DNA of 64,000 bases from Patescibacteria group bacterium (GTDB taxonomy: Bacteria > Patescibacteriota > Minisyncoccia > Phycocordibacterales > WO2-35-19): contig JBBUFS010000004.1 of NCBI GenBank assembly GCA_038056395.1, positions 884-64,883 on the forward strand, read 5' to 3'. The notes beneath the pieces are model-generated. The model was given only the letters and a program-made list of their open reading frames with translations. It did no database searches and was not told where the DNA came from. Both the position numbers and the translations under genes were made by a program. Of the stretch, positions 287 to 13,151 are shown piece by piece. Numbering within the stretch: position 1 is the first letter of the stretch; the number at the start of each line of letters is the position of its first letter.

Positions 287-3200
287 TTATGGCGCCGGTT
301 CAACTATGGGTTCAGGTGTCGGTTCCACTACTGCCGATGGAGTTTCCAACGGAGGCTCGGTAACAGGTACCGGTTCAGGAATTGGTTCAGGAATTATTTC
401 CGGCTTGCCCAGCGAAGCTTCAGCGGAGTTGGGAGTAGTAGTGGCAATCGGCTCTTCTATTATTGGCGGAGTGGTGGAAGCTGCTTGCCCTGAGTCAGTC
501 GAAGGGGTTGGTTCTTCTATTGTTGGAGGCGTTGTGTCTGGAGTGGTGGTAGCGGTGGGAGCAGGAGCGATTCCGGAAGAAGCAATCATGGCCGCCAATT
601 GCTCTTTGTTGACGCAGACATTATCTATGCAAAGCTCTTTGGTCTCCACCTTATCAGCCACCAGACTGCCTGTAATAAGTTTTGTTATCTTGACAAAGCC
701 GTTGCCGATTTCCATTCCGATTTGCTTCAAAAATTCAAACAAACCAAACCACTTGCTTGGCACATCCATGACACTGGCGCCATCCGCAGAAACAAGAGTT
801 TTGGCGCTTTCAACTTCTCTCCAGCCGCTTTTTATATAAGCCATAACCGTCTCTTCGGTATAAGAAGTGGAGGAAGCCGTATCTGATTCAGGAGTATAAA
901 AAGCGGTAGAAGTGGCTCCGCCCACCGCCACCCCGACAATATATCCGCTCTCTATCATTTTGACCGCCACGCCCGGCGTAGTGGAAGAAAGAGCTAGATA
1001 ATCGCCAATTTCAATGGCCCCATTTTCATTTGAAATTTTAACCGGCACCTGCCCGGCGATAGAAACCAAAACATTGTATTGGTTATAATTTTGGTCGCAG
1101 TCCGCGTCATTCACGAAACAAATCGGCCCGTTGCCTATAAAGCCGGGATTGGTGGAAACGATACCAAGGGGCTCCGCTTCCCAAGGTGGCACCTTTGGGG
1201 CATTTCCTAAGGTGCCACCTTGGGAAACAGACCCAGCCCTGACTACACTTTTATCTTTCGTCCTATCAAGCGCCACAATTTCTCCAAACTTCGGCTTATT
1301 ATTCAAATCAGAAATTCTAAAATATTCAGCCATGTCGGCGGCAGAGGTGGTGAAAGCGACCACGCTGGCGCCATTGCCTTGTATTTTGCCTCCTACCGTC
1401 TGGGTGCCATCGGCAAAGGCCACGAAATAGTTGCCGGTGGTTCGGCTGGCATTGGCCACGCCGAGAGTAATCAGCAAGCCGTCGGCATCAGCGCCGGTGT
1501 TGGCATTGTCTATGCGAGCGATATAAGTAGACGCTTGGTTGCCTTGAACTGTAAAGTCGTAAGCCAAAGTGGAGGTGCCTATACCGACGGCGCTATTGGT
1601 GGAATCAACCACAAAGGCAGCGGCGCCCAGTCCGTCATAAAGATTGAGGGCGGTGGTGCTTGAAAGATTCATCCAAAGCCCGCCCTCCGCCGTAAAGCCT
1701 GACAAAAATGTCCCGCCCGAAGAATACATGTTCAAAAGATTGGCCGTCTGGCCGGTGGCCGCCGTTATGTCAACTCCGGCGTTTGTGCTTCCTGCCGTAG
1801 TATCTACTTCAAAGACCGGCGTGCCGCTGGCCATTTGGATTGAAAAAGCGGTGCTTGAAGAAATTTTTTGAGTGAAGCCTCCCCATTGGCTGATAGTAAT
1901 TATATTTCCGCTGATGGAACTGCTGGCGATAGTGAGCAAATCTTTAGCCGTTCCCGCCCCTTGCAAAGAAAAGAGAGCGCCGGGCGCCGCTGTGCCTATG
2001 CCCACATTATTGCTGGAAAAATCATAAACAAATCCTGAACCTTCAATGGCTAAGCCTCCGGCGATGGTGGAAGTGGCGATGGTGGAAGTGGCATTAAAAT
2101 TGCCAAATGTCGGAGTGCTTGTAGCGACGATAGCGCCGGAGGCGTTGGTTGAAAGAAGTGAATTAACAGCCGCGCCAGTGAGAGTGAGAGACGGAGTTGA
2201 AATTGAAGAAGTGGCAATCAAGTTTGCCATCGTTACTGTGCCTCCGTCAAAATATCCGCTTCCGGCCACAGACATTTTATAACCGGGTGTGGTGGAGCCA
2301 ATGCCGAGGTTACCGGCAGAATTGAGAGCCAGCAATGTGGTGGAAGCCGAGTTCACAATATTCAATAAATCTTGAGCGGTTGAGGACGCCCAAATAGTTA
2401 GCCGCGCGTATGGCGTGCTTGTGCCTATGGCGATACCCTCATTTTTGGTGTCCCCGCTTCCGTCTGATTCGCTGTAAAGAGTGAGCAGGGGCAAGCCGTC
2501 AATTGAGGCGGAATAACTTTCAATAGTGCCGGCAGAAGCGGAAGATGTGACCGGCATATCAGCCCAAGAAACTATGCCCGCATCGGAATCAAAACTCTGC
2601 GCTCCCAAGACCAAATTATCAATGGCGGTTTCTCCGGTACTCCAATCATAAGTGATTGCCCCATTGCCCACATCCAATCCGCCAACAATAGTTGTCGTCG
2701 CCGTGCTTGTGCTCATCCAAATATCTCCTAAATGATTGACTCTGAAAAATGTGTTGGTGCTGGAGCCAATAATAAAACTATCCATACCCGCTCCTGCATG
2801 AACTGATAAAGTAGCGTAAGGAGAAGATGTCGCTCCTATTCCAACATTTCCCGTCGCGCCAATAATAGTCAGAGCAGAAGTTGTCGTCGTCGCCGTTCCA
2901 TCAACCGTCGTCGTGGCAAAATACAAATTACCTCCGGCGTTTCTTGTTATCCATTGAGCGATGCCCGCCCCGTCAGTGAGTGATGTTGATGAAGCGACGG
3001 TTAATCGTGCAATTGATGACATTGTGGTAGTGCCGATGCCGACGTTACCCTGACTATTAATACGCATCCTTTCAACCGGGTCTTCTCCTCCTCTGTTCCA
3101 AAATATAAGAGCTGTGACAGTATCACTTGTTCTTATGGCCCTAATACCTGCAAGATTATATGCAGAAGAATTACCCAGTGAAATACCAGCCCCGTCGCTA

Positions 3201-6200
3201 CTATTAGACCTTACTAATAATTGAGATCTGGCATCGCCTTGTGCTGTACCATAAGCACCAAATATCTCGGCCGCAGCTCCACTTTGCACACTAGGTGTGC
3301 CAACTAAGAAAGTACCATTTACGTGTAGTTTCTGCAACGGATTCGCCGTCCCTATCCCCACATTTCCCCCATTAGTCACGACGAAAGAAGTGTTGTGGGC
3401 GATGATGCCGCCGAATTCAATAGGGTCATCATTCCACTCATGTTCAAACTCCATAGATCTAAGATCATTATTGTATTTTTTAAGAAGTTTTTGTTCTTCT
3501 TCAAGAGAAAGAATTTTGCCGCTCTTTTTATATTTCAAATGCCCCGCCACGAAGTTGTGCGTGCCTTCCACTTCTATATCGTAGACCTGTTTTTCCTCCA
3601 GCTTTTCTATTTTCTTTATCTTTTCAAAATTCAAATTATTTTCCAGGGACTGCAGTTTGCCCTCATCATGATTTATTGTTTGCGTCTCTATAACAGCAAT
3701 CTCCTGCCCCTCTTTCAAATCGGAGGTTTTTACCCAAGAATCCTTAATTTGCGGAGAATTTCTCTCAATCCTAATTCCAACTTTATTCAGAGCCCATTTT
3801 AGGATTGATTTCTTATCCACATTGGAATCTGTTGAAACGCTTGACAAACCAAACAGGTTCGCTATACTTGGGACACATTCTCCCCTGCCTCGTTCCGTTT
3901 TCGGAGCGGGGTATGGTTTTTTATAGGAGTTCTTATCGCCAATAATTTTCTGGAAAAGCCCTTCAATCGTCCAGCCGAGACGGGAAAGCAATATATATTT
4001 GTGGGCCAAAGAAGTCAGTGCGCCGGAGAGATTTTCCCTTCCGGCAATTATCACCACTTTTTTACCCAAAGCGTTAAGATCTTTTATAAGCGGAGCAAAG
4101 TCGCCATCGCCAGAAAATAAAACTAGAGTATTAAAATCTTCCGCCAACCGAAGCGCGTCTGTAGCTATTTCTACATCAAAATTAGCTTTCGGCTCCAGAA
4201 GCTCAATACCTTGATCATCAAGACGCTTGGCTTCTGATAGTATTGAATTCCTGATTTTTTCTCCACAGGCCTTCAGCCATCTTGAATTTTGATCATTGTC
4301 CAAAAGGTCAGACAAAGAAATCTTAAAATACTGGACTGGTTTAGTGATAATTGAATATCCCGCTTTTTTGAGAAAATTAAAGAATGAGGGTTGATTTAGA
4401 TTTCGTTCATCTGTTCCATAATAGAAGCGGGTATCATATATGCCTATTTTTTTAAGAGTCCTAATCAATATTTCGAGATTCATAGTTAAACCTCTCTTAA
4501 CAAGCCATGATTTTATATTTGCGTAATCAATAAATGCCATAGCTCCGGACTTTGGCCTGCCTATTTTTTCTCTTACTAAATACGGATGAGTGCCCGTAGT
4601 TTCAATGTATCTGCCCGACTCAGTGGTCAATCTGTAAACGGTACGAACGCCCGTATCCAAAAGGCCGTTTATTATATGATATTCAAATTGGCCGGTTTTC
4701 TGATTCAAAGAAAGCACTTCATCTCCAGGCAAGATGTCTTTGATCGGAACAAACAAACTTTCGTATTCATCTGTTTCAAATTCTTCTCCGTCAGAATCGG
4801 TGTATTTTTTCCTGCGTCTTCTGCGAATTTTTAATAGGGTATCTCCCGTCACGCATTGAGTGGTTGAACCGATGGCAAATGCCGGACCGAGAATGCCCGT
4901 GGGATTTATTGACAACTGAGCCCAAGGCGATGAACTTGCAATCCCCACATTTCCCGTCGCGCCAATTATTGTTAATGCCGAAGTTGTCGTCGTTGCTTCT
5001 CCTGTAATTGTCGTAGTGGCAAAATACAGATTTCCTCCAGCGTTTCTTGTTATCCACTGAGCCACTCCCGCTCCATCAGTGAGAGATGTTGATGAAGCCA
5101 CAGTCAGACGATATTGAGGAGTGGTTGTCCCGATGCCGATTTGACCAGAGGAATCAATCAGCATTCTTGTGGCGATTGCGCCACCGGTTGGTTTGGTCTG
5201 AAACGCAAGCGCGCCCGCGTCATCAGCTCCAGCCCGAGCGCTAGCTATGCTGGCTACACGATTCGTCTGATGGTAAAAATCAATTAGAGCAAAACTTGTG
5301 TTGGTGGTTCTGCTTCCCTGCAGTTCCAGTGAAGAAAGGACATTCTCCGAAGCTCCAGCGGAAATAGTTAAGGATTTATTTACACCAGTGGTCAAACCAG
5401 GACTTTCCGTCCCCACCCCCACATTACCCACCGAGTTAATTATAAAGTATGTAGATGTAGCGGAAGCTCCAGTTGAACTTGCCACAACGAAGAGAGGAAC
5501 AACAGATGCTCCATCGGAGTATGAGGAGACAGAGAGTTTGGCCAGAGGAGAAGTGGTGCCAATGCCTAGGTTACCGTTAAAGACGAAGCCGTCTGTGTCA
5601 GTCAGTCCGTTGCCACCGGAGTTAGTGTGTATTATTCGATTAGCTGTAAATCCAGTTTGATCTGTGTCTGTTAAGGCGAGGAATGTTGAGACTCCTGATC
5701 CCCCACCAACGCAATTATTATTAATAGCAAAACATCCTGCGCTTAAGTTGATGCCGACATTTGATGTAGTGGTGGCTGTTGCGGATATATCAAGACCGGC
5801 TAAAGTGGTAGTGCCAAATCCTTCGGTTGAAACGGAGAGGAGAGATTTGGTTGAAGAGCCAACAGCAAAACCCCAAATATCTCCGGCTTGAGTTTCAATA
5901 CCCAATCGAGCAAACGGGGTGGTGGTGCCAACCCCTGTTTTGCCTTGATTAGTCACAACAAAACTGGTGTTGTGAGCGACGATGCCGTTGGCCACGAAGT
6001 TGTGGGTATTTTCAATTTCAATATCGTAAACTTTTTCCTCTGGCATAATTTCAATCTTTGAAATAACATCCCAAACAGATCTTTTATTGCCGGATACGGC
6101 TATTTTTTGGCCTTCCTTTAGACCCTTCACCTTTGTCCACACCCCACCGCTTGACAAAGATGGCGGCTTGGAATAGAGTGTATCCAATAACGCAACCCCA

Positions 6201-9200
6201 AGCCCTGTGCTTGGGGCTTGTTTTTTATCTGCGCCATTTGCCGTATTTTGATACAAGTTTAGGTCATTTTGGTAGTCATCTATGTTTATATGCAGTATCT
6301 GTCTCAACTCCCAAGCCATATTATTTTCAAACCCGGCAAAAGCTATTTTCTTCCCTTTGTTTATGGAATATTTCTTAAGCGGCAAAAGATCGCTGTCTCC
6401 GCTTACTACAAGTATTGCATCGAGATTTTTTGCGGTTTCTGTAACATCAAGAGTAAGTTCTACATCCATATCTCCCTTCTTTTCCATCACCTCTGCCATC
6501 TTTCCATTTATTTCCTTATTAGTTTTTATGTATTTAAGAGGTTTGGTAATTAAATTAACATACGGCTCAACAAAACTTATGTATTTCAATGTCTTCTCTC
6601 TGGACTCATCGCCTTCTTTCGGTATAGCTGTGTAGAAATTTATAAACTGCAAATCAAAAAACTTGGAAAGTTCTTTCTTCAATTTTGCAAAATCAATTTT
6701 CCAGCCCGCTTTTTTCTGAGCATAGAACATATTTGAGTTGTCATAAAATACTCCAAGTTTTGGCTTGACTGGAAGTTTTTCTGGTTTGGTTTGGGTGAAG
6801 TACGGATGCTCGCTTGTCGTCCTGATGGACTTGCCGGAGGCGGTGGTCAGTTTATAAATTTCTTTTTTGCCTGTGTAAACTACTTGCTTGACTTTGCTCC
6901 AGACAAGTTTGCCTGTTTTGGTATCAAGTGATTGAACTTCATCGCCTTCTTCTATGTCTAATATGGTTGGGTTGTCATAAACATACTCCGTATCCAAATC
7001 CGAAGCACTAAATCCGAAATCCGAAAGTTTGGAATTTGGATCATTTGGATTTGGAATTTGTTTAGAATTTCGAGTTTTGAATTTCGAATTTCTTCGACGC
7101 CTTCGTCGAAGTCTAGTGTCTCCCGTCACGCACTGCGTTGTTGAACCTATGGCAAATGCCGGACCGAGAATGCCCGTGGGATTTATTGACAACTGAGCCC
7201 AAGGTGATGAGCTTGCAATTCCCACATTTCCCGTCGCGCCAATTATTGAAAGCGCTTCTATTGAACTCGTCGCTGTTCCGTCAACCGTGGTAGTGGCAAA
7301 ATACAAATTCCCTCCTGCGTTTCTTGTCACCCATTGAGCTACTCCTGCTCCGTCAGTGAGTGCTGTGCTTGATGCGACAGTTAGACGGTATTGAGGTGTG
7401 GTGGTGCCGATGCCGACGTTGCCAGAAGATGTGATTCGCATTCGTTCAACTTGGTTGGTTACAAAACCCAAGACGTTCGCTGCCGGTGAAAATAATCCGG
7501 TACCAGTGCCTAAGATAGCTAAAGCTGGCACGTTCGCTACGCCACCACTGGTTATGAAGAATTTATTACTAACACCGATGTAGTCCGACGAGGAGCGGTT
7601 GAGATAATCGCCACTTGTACCGATATAAAGGTTAGTTACAACGCGGGCGCTGCCATTAACTTCCAAAGGATAGATAGGACTCGCCGTCCTGATGCCGACA
7701 TTGCCATTAGCCAAAACGGTGAAGAGAGTTGAGGTGGCGGTGCCGCCGGTGGTTGAGGCGATGGTGAAGAGAGGCGTGTTGATGGCGGTGTTGAGATTGT
7801 TTGAAATTGAAAGCAGAGAATATGGTGATGTCGTCCCAATACCGACATTGCCGCTTTGCGCAATGAAGAGAGAGGATGTAGCTGTCAAAGTTGTGCCGAC
7901 GGAATCATAAAATGGAACTTGGCCTTGCAAAGTAGAAGCGCCGACCGAACCAGCTCCGGTGCCCGCGCATATGCCGTTGATTGCGAAACATCCGGCTGAA
8001 AGATTGATGCCTACATTTGATGTGCTTGTGGCTTGACCGATAATATCCAAACCGCGAATTGTGGTTGTTCCAAATCCCCCGCCTGCGATTTCTAGAGCAG
8101 AGATGGTAGTAGTGGCTTCTCCGGTGATTGTTGTGGTGGCGAAATATAAATTCCCTCCGGCGTTCCTAAATGTCCATTGGCCAATGCCTGCTCCGGCTGA
8201 AAGCGAAAGTTGAGGCGAGGTGGAGGAAGATACCGTCAGTTGATAACTGGCGGCAGTGGTAGTGCCGATGAGTATTTGCGAAGTAGTGGCGGACAAACCA
8301 AGTAAGGGATGAGTCCAAGCGTCGTAGGAAGAGAGAGGAGTAAATCCGAATATGGAAGATGAGGCGGCTACATTGAGCGTTCCATCATTTCCGGCCGTGT
8401 AGACGAAACCGTTGGCGGTCAAATTTGAAAGTTTAGGAATACTGGCCGAACCTTCCACGGTAAGATTGCCGCCAAGGTAAGTGTTGTGAGCGATGATGTC
8501 GTTCCCCACGAAGTTGTGAGTGCCTTCCACTTCAATGTCATAGACTTTTTCAGCTGGCAGACGCTTGATCTCAATTACTTTTTCCCAAGCGGCTCTCTCC
8601 CCGTGAATAACAGCTACAGATTCGCCGACTCGCAGATCCCCCGCCACTCTCCACACGCCATCCTTGACAAGATTTTCAGATTTGCTATACTTGCTCTCAA
8701 GAAGCGCTCGTGAGCCAACCAGACTCTCGTCTTTGTGCGAGAAAACAGTAGCTCTAAGGGCGTTTTCTGTTTGGGCCAAAAGCGCGGTCGCGTCTGCTCC
8801 GACTTTTTCATCCGCTTTTTTCTTGCCAATATGAACGCCCCAGGCCGCAAAGTGAGCCGGCGACTTTTTGCCGATTGGAGCGAAATGTATTTCAATATCG
8901 GCAAATTGATTTTTGATGATAGAAGCAATAATTTTATCATGACCGATATACTCGGTATCAATAACAAGCTCGTGAACTGTAGATTTGAGCTTCAACAAAG
9001 CTTCTTTTATGCCGATAGCAAACAAAATCGCATAAAGTTTGCCTGATTTTTTAAATCTTTTCTTGAAATTTTGTTTTATCTCGCGCGGTATTACGACCGA
9101 GATTGAGTTTTCTTGATTTGCCACTGATATGACGGTATCATGATTGAAGTTTTCAATCTTTACTGATTGATCCGCTTCAAATTTGTAAAGCTTTTGGTTC

Positions 9201-11314
9201 GTTTTTAGAGGATATTTTGTGCGGACAAAATACGGATGAACAGCGGTAGTGCGTATGCTTTTGCCGGTAATAGTAGTAATCTTGTATAAATCCTTGATTC
9301 CCATATCCATCAAAGCGTTCACTCGCGACCAAATCAGCTTGCCTGTAATCTGGTCCATTGATTGAATCTCGTCTCCCGGCTCCACATCTTTGATCATCAC
9401 TTCATCATAAATGTATGCCCCTTTGCGTCTTCTCCTTCTCCTTAGTTTTGTGTCTGCCGTCACACAATGCGTCCCGACCGCAAATCCTCCGGCCGGACTT
9501 GTGGTTGCCACCCCCACCAATCCGTTTGCTGTAATAGTCAGAGCAGCCAGGGTAGAAGTGGCTGTGCCGTCAATAGTGGTGGTGGCGAAGTATAGATTAC
9601 CGCCTGCATTCCTCATTGTCCATTGAGCCACACCCGCTCCGGCGGAAAGCGAGAGTTGAGGAGCGGTGGAGGAGGCGACAGTGAGCAAATATTGAGGAGT
9701 GGTAGTGCCAAGACCGAGATTTTTAGAATTATTGTCCCAGACAAAATTACTATCAAATGAGAGATTGCCGCCGTTTGTCCAAAAAGCAGCCCTGTTTGCC
9801 GCGCCACTACCGGTCAGGCCGGCGCCCAGACCGAGGCAGGTGCCATCCATAGCGAAACAACCGTCAGAAATATCAAATCCTCCGGCTGATGTGGTAGTGC
9901 CGGTGCCATTGATAGCTAAATTGCCGCTAAAAGTAGAGGTGGCCGTGGAGGTGCCGGTAAAGTAGGCGCCAACAATTTGTCCCGCCACCGAAAGACTGGC
10001 GTATGGAGAAGTGGTGCCTATACCAAAATTAGTGCCGTCAAAAACAAAACCATCAGTATCGGTCAGGGCAGTGCCAAGCGCATTAGTGTGAATAATCCTG
10101 TTTGCTGTAAAAGCTGATGGCGTATCAGTGAGGGCCAGATAAGTGGAAGCTCCGGAACTGCTTGAGCTGCTAGAAGAACTAGAAGAACTGCCGGCTCTGC
10201 CAACAATTACATCATTTTGTCTGGATATATAATATCTGTTTACATTCGGCGCCAGAGGCGAAATCAAAAACCAATTTTTTAATTCTGCAATTTTAAAATC
10301 TACATATTCTTTGTCAGAGCCAGCCACAAAAACCGTTTTAGCTATTCTTCCTTCTTCTTCTGTTGTAAGAGAGGGTTGGAGTGAGTTATTTGAAATATTA
10401 TTTTCAACAATAATAGTTCCTCCATCTTTCAAAAACCAGGGCCTCACTATTTTATAAGCAGTATCTTTCATCCATCCAGAAATAGATTGCCATCCATCGA
10501 CAGAAAACAAAGAAGAAGCAAGTTGATTACTGCTTTGGTTTACATTTGAAATATTCTCTTTAAATTTTGAAAAATCATTTTGAAATTTATTTATATAAGG
10601 ACTATACAAAAAAGATATTTCTTCCTTGACTTGACCTCCAAAATGAGTTGGGATTGGATTTTTGAAATTTTCTTTACCAAAAATAAAGACTCCTGTAAGC
10701 AATAAAACAAGGGTAATAACGCTGGTATTTATAACAAACTTATCAAAGCTAGACCTCTTTGGGGACCTTTTTATCGCTTCCTCAACACCACTCAGAGCAA
10801 TGTATCTTGCCGTCCTTATATCAAATTTTTTTTCTAAAACCGGAAATAATTCTTTATCATCCTTATAATACAAGGGTTTTATCTCTCCGACATCTCGGGT
10901 ACTCGAGATACGCGATTTTACCTTTTTTTCCGTCAGTAATTCCCTTGGTAAAAAGGAGTCCTCCGAAACCATATTGTCGTCAAATACAGCAACTTTTTCC
11001 CACTTACTTTTTTCTTTATTTTTATCTTTTTCTTCTTCTAGATTTTCAACCTGATTCTCTGATTTTATCTCTAGACCATTTTTTTTTAGCCGGCGAGTTT
11101 TGAGAGTTTTCTTATGGGTTAGTAGATTTTTATTTTTATGATCCAAAATTTCATTTTCCAAAACATACCAGCTTCTACCAACCAAACTAGCAGTGATTTT
11201 TTTTGCTCTGCAAAGTTGTCCGATATAATCACTGGCATAACCAGTGATGTCAGCAGCTCGGCTTGCCGAGATGTATTTTTTACCTTTCAAATAAAGAGAC
11301 TTATTCACACACAT
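287..11314 (-). CDS. Giant (3675 aa precursor, about 2471 aa after splicing) membrane-anchored surface repeat protein interrupted by three inteins. It has an N-terminal HTH_17/excisionase-like segment, one TM helix, long Gly/Thr/Ser-rich beta-repeats (NVGIGTTxP...L.V.G; tail-fibre / Chlorovirus-glycoprotein-like) and a Pro/Thr/Glu-rich C-terminal tail
   Basis: Single uninterrupted ORF. TM segment FVINTSVITLVLLLTGVFIFG. Repeated modules GNVGIGTTTPQYRLTVASSTSLTDGAGVAQWITRNAGGNLYFATTT recur at least 5 times. Three Hint domains carry all intein blocks. C-terminus is ...TPEPIVEPAP. Confidence 0.8.
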   Translation of the reverse strand: MCVNKSLYLKGKKYISASRAADITGYASDYIGQLCRAKKITASLVGRSWYVLENEILDHKNKNLLTHKKTLKTRRLKKNGLEIKSENQVENLEEEKDKNKEKSKWEKVAVFDDNMVSEDSFLPRELLTEKKVKSRISSTRDVGEIKPLYYKDDKELFPVLEKKFDIRTARYIALSGVEEAIKRSPKRSSFDKFVINTSVITLVLLLTGVFIFGKENFKNPIPTHFGGQVKEEISFLYSPYINKFQNDFSKFKENISNVNQSSNQLASSLFSVDGWQSISGWMKDTAYKIVRPWFLKDGGTIIVENNISNNSLQPSLTTEEEGRIAKTVFVAGSDKEYVDFKIAELKNWFLISPLAPNVNRYYISRQNDVIVGRAGSSSSSSSSSSSSGASTYLALTDTPSAFTANRIIHTNALGTALTDTDGFVFDGTNFGIGTTSPYASLSVAGQIVGAYFTGTSTATSTFSGNLAINGTGTTTSAGGFDISDGCFAMDGTCLGLGAGLTGSGAANRAAFWTNGGNLSFDSNFVWDNNSKNLGLGTTTPQYLLTVASSTAPQLSLSAGAGVAQWTMRNAGGNLYFATTTIDGTATSTLAALTITANGLVGVATTSPAGGFAVGTHCVTADTKLRRRRRRKGAYIYDEVMIKDVEPGDEIQSMDQITGKLIWSRVNALMDMGIKDLYKITTITGKSIRTTAVHPYFVRTKYPLKTNQKLYKFEADQSVKIENFNHDTVISVANQENSISVVIPREIKQNFKKRFKKSGKLYAILFAIGIKEALLKLKSTVHELVIDTEYIGHDKIIASIIKNQFADIEIHFAPIGKKSPAHFAAWGVHIGKKKADEKVGADATALLAQTENALRATVFSHKDESLVGSRALLESKYSKSENLVKDGVWRVAGDLRVGESVAVIHGERAAWEKVIEIKRLPAEKVYDIEVEGTHNFVGNDIIAHNTYLGGNLTVEGSASIPKLSNLTANGFVYTAGNDGTLNVAASSSIFGFTPLSSYDAWTHPLLGLSATTSQILIGTTTAASYQLTVSSSTSPQLSLSAGAGIGQWTFRNAGGNLYFATTTITGEATTTISALEIAGGGFGTTTIRGLDIIGQATSTSNVGINLSAGCFAINGICAGTGAGSVGASTLQGQVPFYDSVGTTLTATSSLFIAQSGNVGIGTTSPYSLLSISNNLNTAINTPLFTIASTTGGTATSTLFTVLANGNVGIRTASPIYPLEVNGSARVVTNLYIGTSGDYLNRSSSDYIGVSNKFFITSGGVANVPALAILGTGTGLFSPAANVLGFVTNQVERMRITSSGNVGIGTTTPQYRLTVASSTALTDGAGVAQWVTRNAGGNLYFATTTVDGTATSSIEALSIIGATGNVGIASSSPWAQLSINPTGILGPAFAIGSTTQCVTGDTRLRRRRRRNSKFKTRNSKQIPNPNDPNSKLSDFGFSASDLDTEYVYDNPTILDIEEGDEVQSLDTKTGKLVWSKVKQVVYTGKKEIYKLTTASGKSIRTTSEHPYFTQTKPEKLPVKPKLGVFYDNSNMFYAQKKAGWKIDFAKLKKELSKFFDLQFINFYTAIPKEGDESREKTLKYISFVEPYVNLITKPLKYIKTNKEINGKMAEVMEKKGDMDVELTLDVTETAKNLDAILVVSGDSDLLPLKKYSINKGKKIAFAGFENNMAWELRQILHINIDDYQNDLNLYQNTANGADKKQAPSTGLGVALLDTLYSKPPSLSSGGVWTKVKGLKEGQKIAVSGNKRSVWDVISKIEIMPEEKVYDIEIENTHNFVANGIVAHNTSFVVTNQGKTGVGTTTPFARLGIETQAGDIWGFAVGSSTKSLLSVSTEGFGTTTLAGLDISATATTTSNVGINLSAGCFAINNNCVGGGSGVSTFLALTDTDQTGFTANRIIHTNSGGNGLTDTDGFVFNGNLGIGTTSPLAKLSVSSYSDGASVVPLFVVASSTGASATSTYFIINSVGNVGVGTESPGLTTGVNKSLTISAGASENVLSSLELQGSRTTNTSFALIDFYHQTNRVASIASARAGADDAGALAFQTKPTGGAIATRMLIDSSGQIGIGTTTPQYRLTVASSTSLTDGAGVAQWITRNAGGNLYFATTTITGEATTTTSALTIIGATGNVGIASSSPWAQLSINPTGILGPAFAIGSTTQCVTGDTLLKIRRRRRKKYTDSDGEEFETDEYESLFVPIKDILPGDEVLSLNQKTGQFEYHIINGLLDTGVRTVYRLTTESGRYIETTGTHPYLVREKIGRPKSGAMAFIDYANIKSWLVKRGLTMNLEILIRTLKKIGIYDTRFYYGTDERNLNQPSFFNFLKKAGYSIITKPVQYFKISLSDLLDNDQNSRWLKACGEKIRNSILSEAKRLDDQGIELLEPKANFDVEIATDALRLAEDFNTLVLFSGDGDFAPLIKDLNALGKKVVIIAGRENLSGALTSLAHKYILLSRLGWTIEGLFQKIIGDKNSYKKPYPAPKTERGRGECVPSIANLFGLSSVSTDSNVDKKSILKWALNKVGIRIERNSPQIKDSWVKTSDLKEGQEIAVIETQTINHDEGKLQSLENNLNFEKIKKIEKLEEKQVYDIEVEGTHNFVAGHLKYKKSGKILSLEEEQKLLKKYNNDLRSMEFEHEWNDDPIEFGGIIAHNTSFVVTNGGNVGIGTANPLQKLHVNGTFLVGTPSVQSGAAAEIFGAYGTAQGDARSQLLVRSNSSDGAGISLGNSSAYNLAGIRAIRTSDTVTALIFWNRGGEDPVERMRINSQGNVGIGTTTMSSIARLTVASSTSLTDGAGIAQWITRNAGGNLYFATTTVDGTATTTTSALTIIGATGNVGIGATSSPYATLSVHAGAGMDSFIIGSSTNTFFRVNHLGDIWMSTSTATTTIVGGLDVGNGAITYDWSTGETAIDNLVLGAQSFDSDAGIVSWADMPVTSSASAGTIESYSASIDGLPLLTLYSESDGSGDTKNEGIAIGTSTPYARLTIWASSTAQDLLNIVNSASTTLLALNSAGNLGIGSTTPGYKMSVAGSGYFDGGTVTMANLIATSSISTPSLTLTGAAVNSLLSTNASGAIVATSTPTFGNFNATSTIATSTIAGGLAIEGSGFVYDFSSNNVGIGTAAPGALFSLQGAGTAKDLLTIASSSISGNIITISQWGGFTQKISSSTAFSIQMASGTPVFEVDTTAGSTNAGVDITAATGQTANLLNMYSSGGTFLSGFTAEGGLWMNLSSTTALNLYDGLGAAAFVVDSTNSAVGIGTSTLAYDFTVQGNQASTYIARIDNANTGADADGLLITLGVANASRTTGNYFVAFADGTQTVGGKIQGNGASVVAFTTSAADMAEYFRISDLNNKPKFGEIVALDRTKDKSVVRAGSVSQGGTLGNAPKVPPWEAEPLGIVSTNPGFIGNGPICFVNDADCDQNYNQYNVLVSIAGQVPVKISNENGAIEIGDYLALSSTTPGVAVKMIESGYIVGVAVGGATSTAFYTPESDTASSTSYTEETVMAYIKSGWREVESAKTLVSADGASVMDVPSKWFGLFEFLKQIGMEIGNGFVKITKLITGSLVADKVETKELCIDNVCVNKEQLAAMIASSGIAPAPTATTTPDTTPPTIEEPTPSTDSGQAASTTPPIIEEPIATTTPNSAEASLGKPEIIPEPIPEPVPVTEPPLETPSAVVEPTPEPIVEPAP
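3392..4855 (-). mobile_element. Intein 3 (488 aa); CVTGDTLL...TTGTHPYL...VYDIEVEGTHNFVAG-(40 aa insert)-GGIIAHN | T(+1); contains an NYN/LabA-like nuclease domain
   Basis: Terminal Asn codon at 3394-3392 (frame-consistent). Cys1 codon maps to about 4855-4852; my by-eye indexing here is uncertain by +/-1 nt. Exteins ...AIGSTTQ | TSFVVTNGGNVGIG; same insertion site as intein 2. Confidence 0.75.
3956..4546 (-). other. NYN/LabA-like nuclease domain inside intein 3
   Basis: AMAFIDYANIKSW (FIDxxN), ANFDVEIATDALRLAED, LVLFSGDGDFAPLIKDLNALGKKVVIIAG. All three acidic motifs are conserved. Confidence 0.6.
5969..7132 (-). mobile_element. Intein 2 (388 aa); CVTGDTRL...TTSEHPYF...VYDIEIENTHNFVANGIVAHN | T(+1); contains an NYN/LabA-like nuclease domain
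   Basis: Cys1 codon at 7132-7130, terminal Asn codon at 5971-5969; both frame-consistent with the host ORF. Flanking exteins are ...AIGSTTQ | TSFVVTNQGKTGVGTTTP. Confidence 0.8.
6278..6769 (-). other. NYN/LabA-like (PIN-fold) nuclease domain inside intein 2
   Basis: The three NYN signature motifs appear in order: LGVFYDNSNM (FxDxxN), GDMDVELTLDV (acidic D-x-D/E), ILVVSGDSDLLPLKK (SGDSDxxPL) followed by GKKIAFAG. Pattern match by eye to PF01936-type proteins. Confidence 0.55.
8483..9466 (-). mobile_element. Intein 1 (328 aa), residues 617-944 of the precursor; Cys1 = CVTADT, block B TTAVHPYF, block F/G VYDIEVEGTHNFVGNDIIAHN | T(+1); carries a roughly 170-aa insert of unknown type
   Basis: Codons mapped by reverse-complementing the sequence: tgt(Cys1) at 9466-9464, aac(terminal Asn) at 8485-8483, followed by act (Thr+1). 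In frame with the host ORF. No LAGLIDADG or HNH motifs seen in the insert. Confidence 0.8.
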
Positions 11315-11341
11315 ATTATACTATCTCGGCTTGCCGAGATG
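11257..11341. promoter_or_regulatory. Two identical 17-nt copies of ctcggcttgccgagatg (11257-11273 and 11325-11341). Each is a 6-bp-stem hairpin, and they flank the start codon of the giant gene (ATG at 11314-11312)
   Basis: Exact duplicate read from the sequence: one copy 11 nt upstream of the ATG (mRNA sense), one in codons 14-19. Lies inside the divergent promoter region shared with the HTH gene at 11627. Confidence 0.4.
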
Positions 11342-11626: not shown

Positions 11627-11890
11627 TTGATTTTAAATAATAATATGAATAAATATATAACAATTAAAGACGCTTCTAATATATTAGGTATGTCTAAGAT
11701 CACCCTTAGAAATTGGGACAAGTCCGGCAAGCTCAAGGCCCACCGCCATCCCTTTAATAATTACAGAGTCTATAAATTGGAGGACATTGACAAAGTATTG
11801 GAAATGATTGAGAGTAATATTTTCATCATAAAAAAGAAAAAGAATGAGATTCGCAAGTTGGCTGTTCGCCACTTAGAAGAAAATCAGTAG
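11627..11890 (+). CDS. Small HTH DNA-binding protein, MerR/excisionase (HTH_17) type
   Basis: MNKYITIKDASNILGMSKITLRNWDKSGKLKAHRHPFNNYRVYKLEDIDKV matches the HTH_17 pattern (ylt.keaaellgvs..tl..w...Gkl.a.r.g..rry..edl). Divergent from the giant gene, whose N-terminus carries a similar segment. Confidence 0.6.
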   Translation: MILNNNMNKYITIKDASNILGMSKITLRNWDKSGKLKAHRHPFNNYRVYKLEDIDKVLEMIESNIFIIKKKKNEIRKLAVRHLEENQ

Positions 11891-12497: not shown

Positions 12498-13151
12498 ATG
12501 AGATACGAAAATTTTGCGGAGAATGAGCACTATCATATATTTGGCAGAGGAATTAATAAAGAAAAAATATTTATTGATGAACAAGATCGAATAAGATTTA
12601 TATTTTTAATCACCCATTTCCAATCCCCTATCAAAATATATAACATATCTTGGTACACTAAGGCCTTTATTAAAAGCGGTTCTTTTAATTTTAGTGCCAA
12701 AAAGAGCGGAACAGAAGAAATACTTAAAAAAAGAAATGTTGAGCTAGTGGCTTTTGCTTTAATGCCAAATCATTTTCATATTTTGATTAAAAATTTAGAG
12801 GATCGTATCCTCTCTGTCTATATGCACCGAATCCTGACCGCTTACAGCAAATATTTTAATGCCAAGTATAATAAAAAAGGTCATGTTTTTGAAGGACCCT
12901 TCGGGGCAGTGTTGGTTGAAAATAATAATCAACTTTTGCACCTATCCGCCTATATCCACAAGAACCCAAAGGAAATTAAGGAGTGGACGAACAATTATGA
13001 TAAATATCCATATTCAAGCTATCAAGATTACATTGGTTCAAACAGATGGGGAGACCTTCTTGTCACTGATATAATCTTAAAACAATTCAAAGACTGGGTT
13101 AAATATAAGGATTTTGTTTCCACTAGTGTGGCTAAAGAGCCCTTATTTTAA
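12498..13151 (+). CDS. IS200/IS605-family Y1 (HUH) transposase / REP-associated tyrosine transposase (RayT-like)
   Basis: YHIFGRGINKEKIFIDEQDRIRF (N-terminal motif), ALMPNHFHILI (HUH motif), GHVFEGPFGAVLVENNNQLLHLSAYIHKNPKE (catalytic Tyr region, YIHxNP). The 3' end overlaps the gatB stop by 9 nt. Confidence 0.65.
   Translation: MRYENFAENEHYHIFGRGINKEKIFIDEQDRIRFIFLITHFQSPIKIYNISWYTKAFIKSGSFNFSAKKSGTEEILKKRNVELVAFALMPNHFHILIKNLEDRILSVYMHRILTAYSKYFNAKYNKKGHVFEGPFGAVLVENNNQLLHLSAYIHKNPKEIKEWTNNYDKYPYSSYQDYIGSNRWGDLLVTDIILKQFKDWVKYKDFVSTSVAKEPLF

Follow-up and report, generated by a model that had tools for sequence, protein, structure and literature searches.

The stretch of DNA analysed here, hereafter the window, comprises 64,000 nucleotides (nt) of contig JBBUFS010000004.1 from a Patescibacteria group bacterium (assembly GCA_038056395.1), and its positions 287..11314 hold, on the minus strand, a giant gene consisting of one uninterrupted open reading frame (ORF) of 3675 amino acids (aa) in which three segments with the features of inteins are embedded in frame. 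Also on the minus strand are intein 1 (328 aa, aa 617-944; 8483..9466), intein 2 (388 aa, aa 1395-1782; 5969..7132) and intein 3 (488 aa, aa 2154-2641; 3392..4855), and their removal would leave a predicted mature protein of 2471 aa. The original prediction, made on this DNA from its letters, had named the same ORF, 1204 aa of intein and a remainder of about 2471 aa, and our recomputation returns these values exactly. Read from N- to C-terminus, the host protein consists of a cytoplasmic segment resembling a helix-turn-helix (HTH) domain (a weak HTH_17 match), one transmembrane helix and then the NVGIGTTxP repeat modules. The transmembrane segment, VINTSVITLVLLLTGVFIF (aa 194-212; 10679..10735, minus strand), is predicted from a Kyte-Doolittle 19-residue mean of 2.33, and as a single strong hydrophobic segment it backs the membrane anchoring proposed earlier. 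The repeat region of ~3400 residues is rich in Thr, Gly, Ala and Ser and holds at least 14 copies of the NVGIGTTxP-type motif; from it the three inteins stand out by composition, being rich in Lys, Glu and Ile with a guanine plus cytosine (GC) content of 0.39-0.43 vs 0.48-0.50 in the adjoining repeats. The assignment of the host as a giant, non-housekeeping surface-type protein is supported, and its description as tail-fibre-like stands by relation only: homologous hosts carry PF13884 and are named tail fiber domain-containing, but the window protein gives no PF13884 match. Evenly spaced in the repeat modules are CX6C pairs (extein aa 486/493, 1109/1116, 1861/1868 and 3399/3406, for example DGCFAMDGTC and GCFAINGIC), which likely form disulfide loops and would fit an extracellular location.

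Profile searches and splicing blocks agree on the nature of the three segments. Intein_splicing (PF14890) matches all three at 61-70 bits (gathering score 35.8; E 2e-16 to 3e-19), and NCBIfam TIGR01445/TIGR01443 match each of them, with the N-terminal match of intein 1 under its family cut-off. PT-HINT (PF07591) reaches 21-25 bits against a cut-off of 27.7, every separate segment remaining below it, and Hedgehog Hint is also below its cut-off. Each segment is assigned a Hint fold of the DnaB-intein type, and the nearest solved proteins by sequence are the Ssp and Npu DnaB, CDC21-1 and gp41-1 inteins. All three inteins begin with CVT[AG]DT, carry the block B signature TxxH (TTAVH, TTSEH and TTGTH), share a block F that reads VYDIEVEGTHNFV or VYDIEVEGTHNF, end block G in I[IV]AHN and are followed by Thr at position +1. 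With a slash marking each junction, intein 1 is found at what we call site A as ATTSPAGGFAVGTH/C...IIAHN/TYLGGNLTVEGS (AVGTH/CVTADT...IIAHN/TYLGGN at its core), whereas inteins 2 and 3 occupy site B as GPAFAIGSTTQ/C...IVAHN/TSFVVTNQG and GPAFAIGSTTQ/C...IIAHN/TSFVVTNGG, that is, AIGSTTQ/CVTGDT...AHN/TSFVVTN twice. The predicted ligated junctions are FAVGTH-TYLGGNLTVEGSASIPK for intein 1 and AIGSTTQ-TSFVVTNQGK for intein 2. Judged by every feature testable in silico the three segments are class-1 inteins, and most likely splicing-competent and mobile ones. The profile check proposed with the original prediction thus comes out in its favour, and so does its call of class-1 inteins (Cys1, TxxH, HN, Thr+1) over bacterial intein-like (BIL) or PT-HINT domains, all block residues being present. 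Intein 3 has in addition an extra 46-aa insertion between blocks F and G (3407..3544, minus strand). Comparable F-G extensions occur in L012 (aa 1079-1513), L038 and a third intein of L036, and those of some relatives are much longer; this insertion subfamily runs THNFVAGH...GGI[IV]AHN, with a conserved start GHxxxKKxGKxLxxEEE.

Self-BLAST of the whole extein gave only the trivial match. A tiled BLAST of the protein spliced in silico showed residues 963-1080 and 1334-1451 to share 85% identity along 118 aa. In both of these repeat copies junctions 2 and 3 take up the same position, with a common offset of 371 aa, and so define site B; a further copy, the third, shows 69-72% identity and is unoccupied (FIIGSSTN/TFFRVN; 2735..2776, minus strand). 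Site A belongs to a module of the same type, directly after an xVGxxTTSP-xxx-FAVGTH strand, and is the commonest insertion site among related proteins. In a MAFFT alignment of the modules its junction falls ~26 columns upstream of site B, in a different, family-typical register. The earlier claim that all three inteins sit at equivalent repeat sites is therefore exact for inteins 2 and 3, which are confirmed to occupy homologous sites of paralogous repeats, and for intein 1 extends to the type of module and not to the register. Intein-free versions of site B, for which the original prediction had proposed to look, were sought by scanning metagenome contigs for a degenerate DNA pattern of the ligated site as predicted, and they exist: there are five true matches, all in giant repeat ORFs (L076, L077, L079, L080 and L081), and L077 reads PWAQLSINPNGIAGPAFAIGSSTQTSFVVTNGGNVGIGTT (PAFAIGSSTQTSFVVTNGGNVGIGTT), a nearly exact join of the N- and C-exteins of the window at site 3. 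The GatB protein encoded next to the host gene is found identically on contigs from Hainich aquifer groundwater metagenomes, and two of the empty-site matches derive from another Hainich well; the site is uninterrupted in L040 and P0116 too. As these uninterrupted homologues carry the predicted ligated site B, they confirm the intein boundaries. By sequence comparison, homologous sites are filled in some giant-protein genes and empty in others, the comparison covering homologues in general.

The most unusual feature of these inteins, one that the original prediction did not mention, is what they carry. All nested modules sit between blocks B and F, as in homing-endonuclease inteins, and Pfam searches for LAGLIDADG and HNH domains gave no match in the three window inteins (E at most 0.1) or in seven other family members (E at most 0.01). 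Inteins 2 and 3 instead contain NYN (PIN-like) domains of two different subtypes, both well above the PF01936 gathering cut-off of 24.2 bits: subtype a (NYNa) in intein 2 (6299..6760, minus strand; intein aa 125-278; E 2.6e-16, 60.9 bits) and subtype b (NYNb) in intein 3 (3989..4534, minus strand; intein aa 108-289; E 7.3e-20, 72.4 bits). Of the acidic residues characteristic of PIN-like nucleases, D131, D223, D246 and D248 are kept in at least 90% of 12 NYNa members, and D110, D227, E229, D250 and D252 in at least 90% of 10 NYNb members. The insert of intein 1 (8747..9205, minus strand; module at ~intein aa 95-215) has no Pfam match even at E up to 1, nor have its free-standing relatives of ~150 aa. 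Its 150 aa are confidently predicted (pLDDT 89.6) to adopt an RNase H-like (RNase HII-like) fold, and D99, S101, E105, D110, D170, K200 and H205 show no or next to no variation among relatives; of these, D99, E105, D110, D170 and H205 are candidate catalytic residues by sequence conservation. An exhaustive search of 1.84 billion representative proteins turned up 334 proteins related to this insert. Of the 142 newly listed within the best 150 of these, 113 are free-standing and below 260 aa in length, and 24 exceed 1000 aa, nearly all of the latter with intein termini and most with GIGTT motifs; seven inspected free-standing relatives (140-182 aa) align across essentially their full length. On these grounds the RNase H-like insert looks like a captured free-standing gene. 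Other cargo was seen elsewhere: DUF3800 (PF12686, E 5e-7) occupies the nuclease position in some lineage inteins (L029 aa 108-535; P0017), L036 gives a weak LPD3 match, and several further inserts match no family. Two partial leucyl-tRNA synthetases (LeuRS) from Microgenomates-type metagenome-assembled genomes (P0012 and P0014; L050 2768-4786) contain an NYNa-type domain ~41% identical to that of intein 2, followed by an intein-style linker (...CQKCAKNKITYFRSQLLKNKPKAAVFIDD...) and with no recognisable N-terminal Hint part, the contig ending within the gene; this insert may be a degenerate intein, an atypically split intein or a bare NYN insertion.

Nearly all of the homologues that searches with inteins 1 and 2 brought up are fragments from Patescibacteria, to which database annotation gives the labels 'NYN domain-containing', 'Hint domain-containing' or 'tail fiber domain-containing'. 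Scanning a single genome for each species gave 47 lineage loci, nearly all from Patescibacteria (Kaiser-, Zambryski-, Sungii- and Saccharibacteria, WWE3, Davies-, Shapiro-, Kerfeld-, Giovannoni-, Falkow- and Blackburnbacteria, and others); the signature of the lineage is CVTGDTxLRRRRR. The host proteins are very long, the longest ORF seen in a locus having at least 5135 aa and the longest protein of the representative search 7694 aa, and within a protein the inteins usually occupy a recurring repeat site, typically GTTSPxxxLHVxGQ/CVTGDTxLRRRRR...AHN/TYIxGNVGIGTT, with repeats flanking the insertion sites in most family members. Strict pairing of termini finds two to three inteins per ORF, and a relaxed N-terminal pattern finds four in L006, five in L022 (5135 aa) and at least six in L012 (a 4328-aa ORF fragment), numbers per protein that to our knowledge exceed those of any reported gene. 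In L036 a lone repeat unit of 22 aa stands between two inteins (aa ~1176-1200; AHN/TYLSGNVGIGTTSPAQKLHVEGQ/CVIGNT). Cys1 and the terminal HN are present in all 53 paired inteins of the 47 loci, both being demanded by the search pattern; TxxH is found in 52 of the 53, block F in 50, and an Arg/Lys-rich tract after block A in 46, for which nucleic-acid binding is the simplest guess. The +1 residue, left unrestricted in the search, is Thr in 62, Cys in one and Ser in one of 64 cases. A tblastn search of the INPHARED phages with intein 2 gave no match, and IMG/VR returned one full-length relative next to generic block F/G matches only. Since phage collections hold essentially none of these inteins, a phage origin was rejected and the lineage looks cellular. 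It apparently is an undescribed lineage, widespread though patchy in distribution, which has settled again and again in one and the same repeat motif of giant proteins: in the searchable literature we found no paper on inteins in surface proteins of the Candidate Phyla Radiation (CPR) or on inteins with NYN or RNase H-like modules. One NYNb-type intein (L023/P0007) resides in a GIGTT-repeat fragment whose 1.4-kb contig was assigned to a Candidatus Pacearchaeota bin (DPANN archaea), reflecting either cross-domain presence or a binning error.

How the inteins of one gene relate to each other was assessed from both protein and DNA. Overall, the three window inteins are 34-37% identical to one another. 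Inteins 2 and 3 share 37% overall and 42% in the N-terminal Hint part (42-55% for the Hint parts), compared with an identity of their N-extein flanks of 86% at the protein level and 80% at the DNA level, the latter climbing to 90-93% over the final 120 nt; both inteins start with the same 14 nt, and the likeness of the C-exteins ends after 7 residues. On a shared alignment core of columns at least 85% occupied, with a few insert columns included, the nearest relatives of the window inteins are in other genomes (L001, L010, L020/L033), and of 29 inteins from multi-intein hosts only eight have their nearest relative in the same host. The site orthologous to A holds NYNa in L007, L009, L010 and P0001, NYNb in L011 and L014 and the RNase H-like module in the window, all within nearly the same Hint termini (...WDKIVKIEKLPxEKVYDIEVEGTHNFVGNDIIAHN), and the NYN of L010, at site A, is 74% identical to that of window intein 2, at site B. 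In other multi-intein genes the 60 nt on either side of the inteins and the last 60 nt of the inteins themselves are often 88-100% identical in DNA, with the inteins 35-55% identical in protein. This combination of varied inserts with conserved termini and flanks points to intragenic homogenisation plus module exchange: it indicates that flanks and intein termini evolve in concert within a gene, and that interior nuclease modules are exchanged between intein shells. Mobility among the repeat sites is likely, though old and/or modular and no simple copying.

Taking these data together, we consider it probable that the window encodes three splicing-competent class-1 inteins of one CPR-specific lineage, housed in a single-pass membrane-anchored giant protein of an ultra-small groundwater bacterium and spread by means of their nucleases and/or repeat conversion. 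After translation the three inteins would excise and ligate their flanks, giving the 2471-aa surface protein and releasing three Hint-nuclease proteins. Persistence and spread of the lineage would come from targeting a conserved beta-strand motif that follows directly on NVGIGTTxP, recurs many times within a gene and is found in numerous genes and numerous CPR lineages, so that a repeated motif with many equivalent targets would replace the need for a conserved site in an essential protein. Spread would proceed by gene conversion, begun by DNA breaks or nicks from the nested nucleases and/or driven by homology of the flanking repeats; the same conversion would homogenise flanks and intein termini within a gene, and the interior nuclease module would be swapped between intein shells. 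Inteins 2 and 3 would then be occupants of homologous sites and not recent copies of one another.

Several points weigh against this proposal. Both the splicing of the inteins and their nuclease activity are predicted. What NYN/PIN-like and RNase H-like domains are mainly known for is RNase or structure-specific nuclease activity, and we know of no NYN or RNase H-like domain shown to act as a site-specific DNA homing endonuclease. With the host segment predicted to be extracellular, inteins with an Arg6 tract must either splice before export or be exported and splice outside. The 46-aa F-G insertion could impair splicing of intein 3, though the recurrence of comparable extensions in the family argues that it is tolerated. 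Finally, an exact empty site A (LHVxGQ followed by TYIxGNVGIGTT) was not found among the sequences searched, which gave looser versions only, such as STGQ/TYIAGNLGVG in L032.

Two alternatives concern how the sites were filled. The original prediction had pictured intra-gene homing, one intein being copied from its repeat unit into paralogous units of the same gene, and this would agree with the identical positions of inteins 2 and 3 in 85%-identical repeats, with their 90-93% identical upstream 120 nt and shared first 14 intein nt, and with L012, L020, L002 and L004, each of which has an intein whose nearest relative is in the same gene. As a recent event it is not upheld for the window and we regard it as improbable: inteins 2 and 3 have diverged to 37% overall and 42% in the N-terminal Hint part next to an 86% identical flank, they carry different NYN subtypes while intein 1 carries an unrelated nuclease, and the nearest relatives of all three lie outside the gene, as is the case for all but eight of the 29 inteins compared. 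Duplication of a repeat module together with its intein, followed by replacement or divergence of one interior while gene conversion kept the flanks alike, fares better, and we consider it possible, if on the unlikely side. It would explain why DNA flanks and intein termini are near-identical within genes whose intein interiors differ (98/98/100% in L003, 93/97/92-98% in L008) and why Hint termini follow the insertion site as inserts vary; it accounts less well for the strong divergence of the Hint parts of inteins 2 and 3 as well, for a C-extein likeness that stops after 7 residues and for a third paralogous repeat copy that is empty, and it overlaps with the explanation we prefer instead of excluding it.

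The other two alternatives concern what the segments do. Hint modules of the BIL or pretoxin-HINT type would cleave the giant protein or release a toxin with no ligation, a notion to which the variable surface-type host, the weak PT-HINT matches and the nuclease-like inserts, akin to many polymorphic-toxin tips, lend some colour. BIL domains are without a nested nuclease and usually without a C-flanking nucleophile. Their occurrence in variable surface proteins was reportedly described by Amitai et al. 2003 and Dassa et al. 2004. The inteins described here differ in having an essentially invariant Thr+1 (a +1 nucleophile in 64 of 64 cases), His-Asn and TxxH, and nucleases nested within the Hint part and not downstream of it, where the repeats carry on; Intein_splicing scores about twice its cut-off while PT-HINT stays below its gathering score, and uninterrupted homologues carry the exact ligated sequence, all of which makes true inteins the favoured assignment and non-splicing Hint modules very improbable. 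A domesticated function could come on top of splicing: the excised Arg-tract Hint-nucleases, up to three here and six in relatives, might be RNase effectors against a host bacterium, or might nick or cut the repeat motif and so initiate recombination that varies the surface repeat array. The inserts do have RNase-type folds (NYN, RNase H-like) or are DUF3800, and not classical site-specific endonucleases, 46 of 53 inteins have the Arg/Lys-rich tract, gene-conversion footprints surround the sites, and the host protein is predicted to be extracellular in a lineage whose lifestyle is presumed to be episymbiotic. All these features are also expected of selfish inteins that capture available nuclease genes, and presence/absence polymorphism and patchy site occupancy fit selfish elements; we deem a domesticated role unlikely.

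Set against known systems, the inteins of the window combine ordinary splicing chemistry with an unusual host class, nuclease cargo and multi-copy, repeat-targeted lifestyle. They share with class-1 bifunctional inteins (Ssp/Npu DnaB, Pho/Pab CDC21-1, PI-PfuI, PI-SceI) blocks A, B, F and G and the +1 nucleophile, a nuclease nested between B and F, and homologues with empty sites. They differ in that those inteins sit in COG L/F proteins and carry LAGLIDADG or HNH nucleases, whereas ours sit in a giant non-ATP-binding surface repeat protein, carry NYN or RNase H-like modules along with the Arg-rich tract after block A, and have a target repeated within one gene, permitting three to six inteins per protein. 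Compared with free-standing NYN/LabA-like proteins (PF01936; structure 2qip) and ~150-aa RNase H-like proteins, the nested modules are full-length copies with catalytic-type residues conserved, here embedded in a Hint scaffold. A parallel exists in the free-standing homing endonuclease genes that are thought to have invaded mini-inteins. Haloarchaeal MCM is a multi-intein gene with up to four distinct insertion sites (PMC10643990); it shows the same presence of several inteins per gene and presence/absence variation among relatives, but its sites are non-homologous positions of a unique domain, whereas the sites described here are paralogous copies of one repeat motif, so that one target specificity can serve many positions.

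More than 80% of bacterial intein hosts function in replication and repair or nucleotide metabolism (61.5% COG category L, 21.7% category F, 76.7% ATP-binding; PMC4760082), and the usual account invokes conserved sites in essential proteins. The giant CPR surface proteins represent an alternative niche, where a conserved structural motif that recurs at high frequency would give one target specificity many places to land within each gene. NYN/PIN-like and unclassified RNase H-like families are nominated by these data as intein-associated mobility or effector modules, and modular exchange of nuclease modules between Hint shells is brought to light. If the effector or recombination reading were true, intein cassettes would amount to a modular loading of different nucleases onto one carrier protein. 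On the practical side, compact DnaB-like inteins with Thr+1 could serve as new splicing tools. Gene callers and annotators at present name the fragments 'NYN domain-containing protein' and put the mature size of CPR giant proteins too high, and the combination of repeats and inteins makes for poor assembly of these genes.

The genes near the host gene encode GatB, a MYG1-like protein, GH15, GH57, a GT4 glycosyltransferase, SecA and a Wzy-like protein, and the low GC of the window is compatible with a Patescibacteria genome. An assembly artefact was considered and rejected: GatB and, next to it, the start of a partial 3288-residue gene call are also present on an ENA contig from an independent assembly, a Logan assembly likewise contains GatB, and the same architecture is seen at 47 genome loci. 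Rfam and tRNA scans of the window gave no matches, so that no RNA-level element accounts for the insertions. Upstream of the giant gene an AT-rich 1.2-kb region contains an IS200-like Y1 transposase ORF (window 12498-13151, plus strand; PF01797, E 1e-10) and a small MerR/HTH_17-type gene (window ~11640-11890, plus strand; 81 aa in the ENA gene call). A 17-nt palindrome-containing element, CATCTCGGCAAGCCGAG, occurs twice at window ~11255-11340 on the minus strand, once immediately 5' of a TATAAT-like box and the giant gene's ATG and once within codons ~14-20 (YISASRAA), and the pair may be a regulatory hairpin or an operator pair. Just 3' of the stop codon of the giant gene, at window ~140-235, lie two perfect hairpins, CCTCCCTTAAATTAAGGGAGG and CTCCTCTTAACTTAAGAGGAG, which may be terminators or a repeated element.

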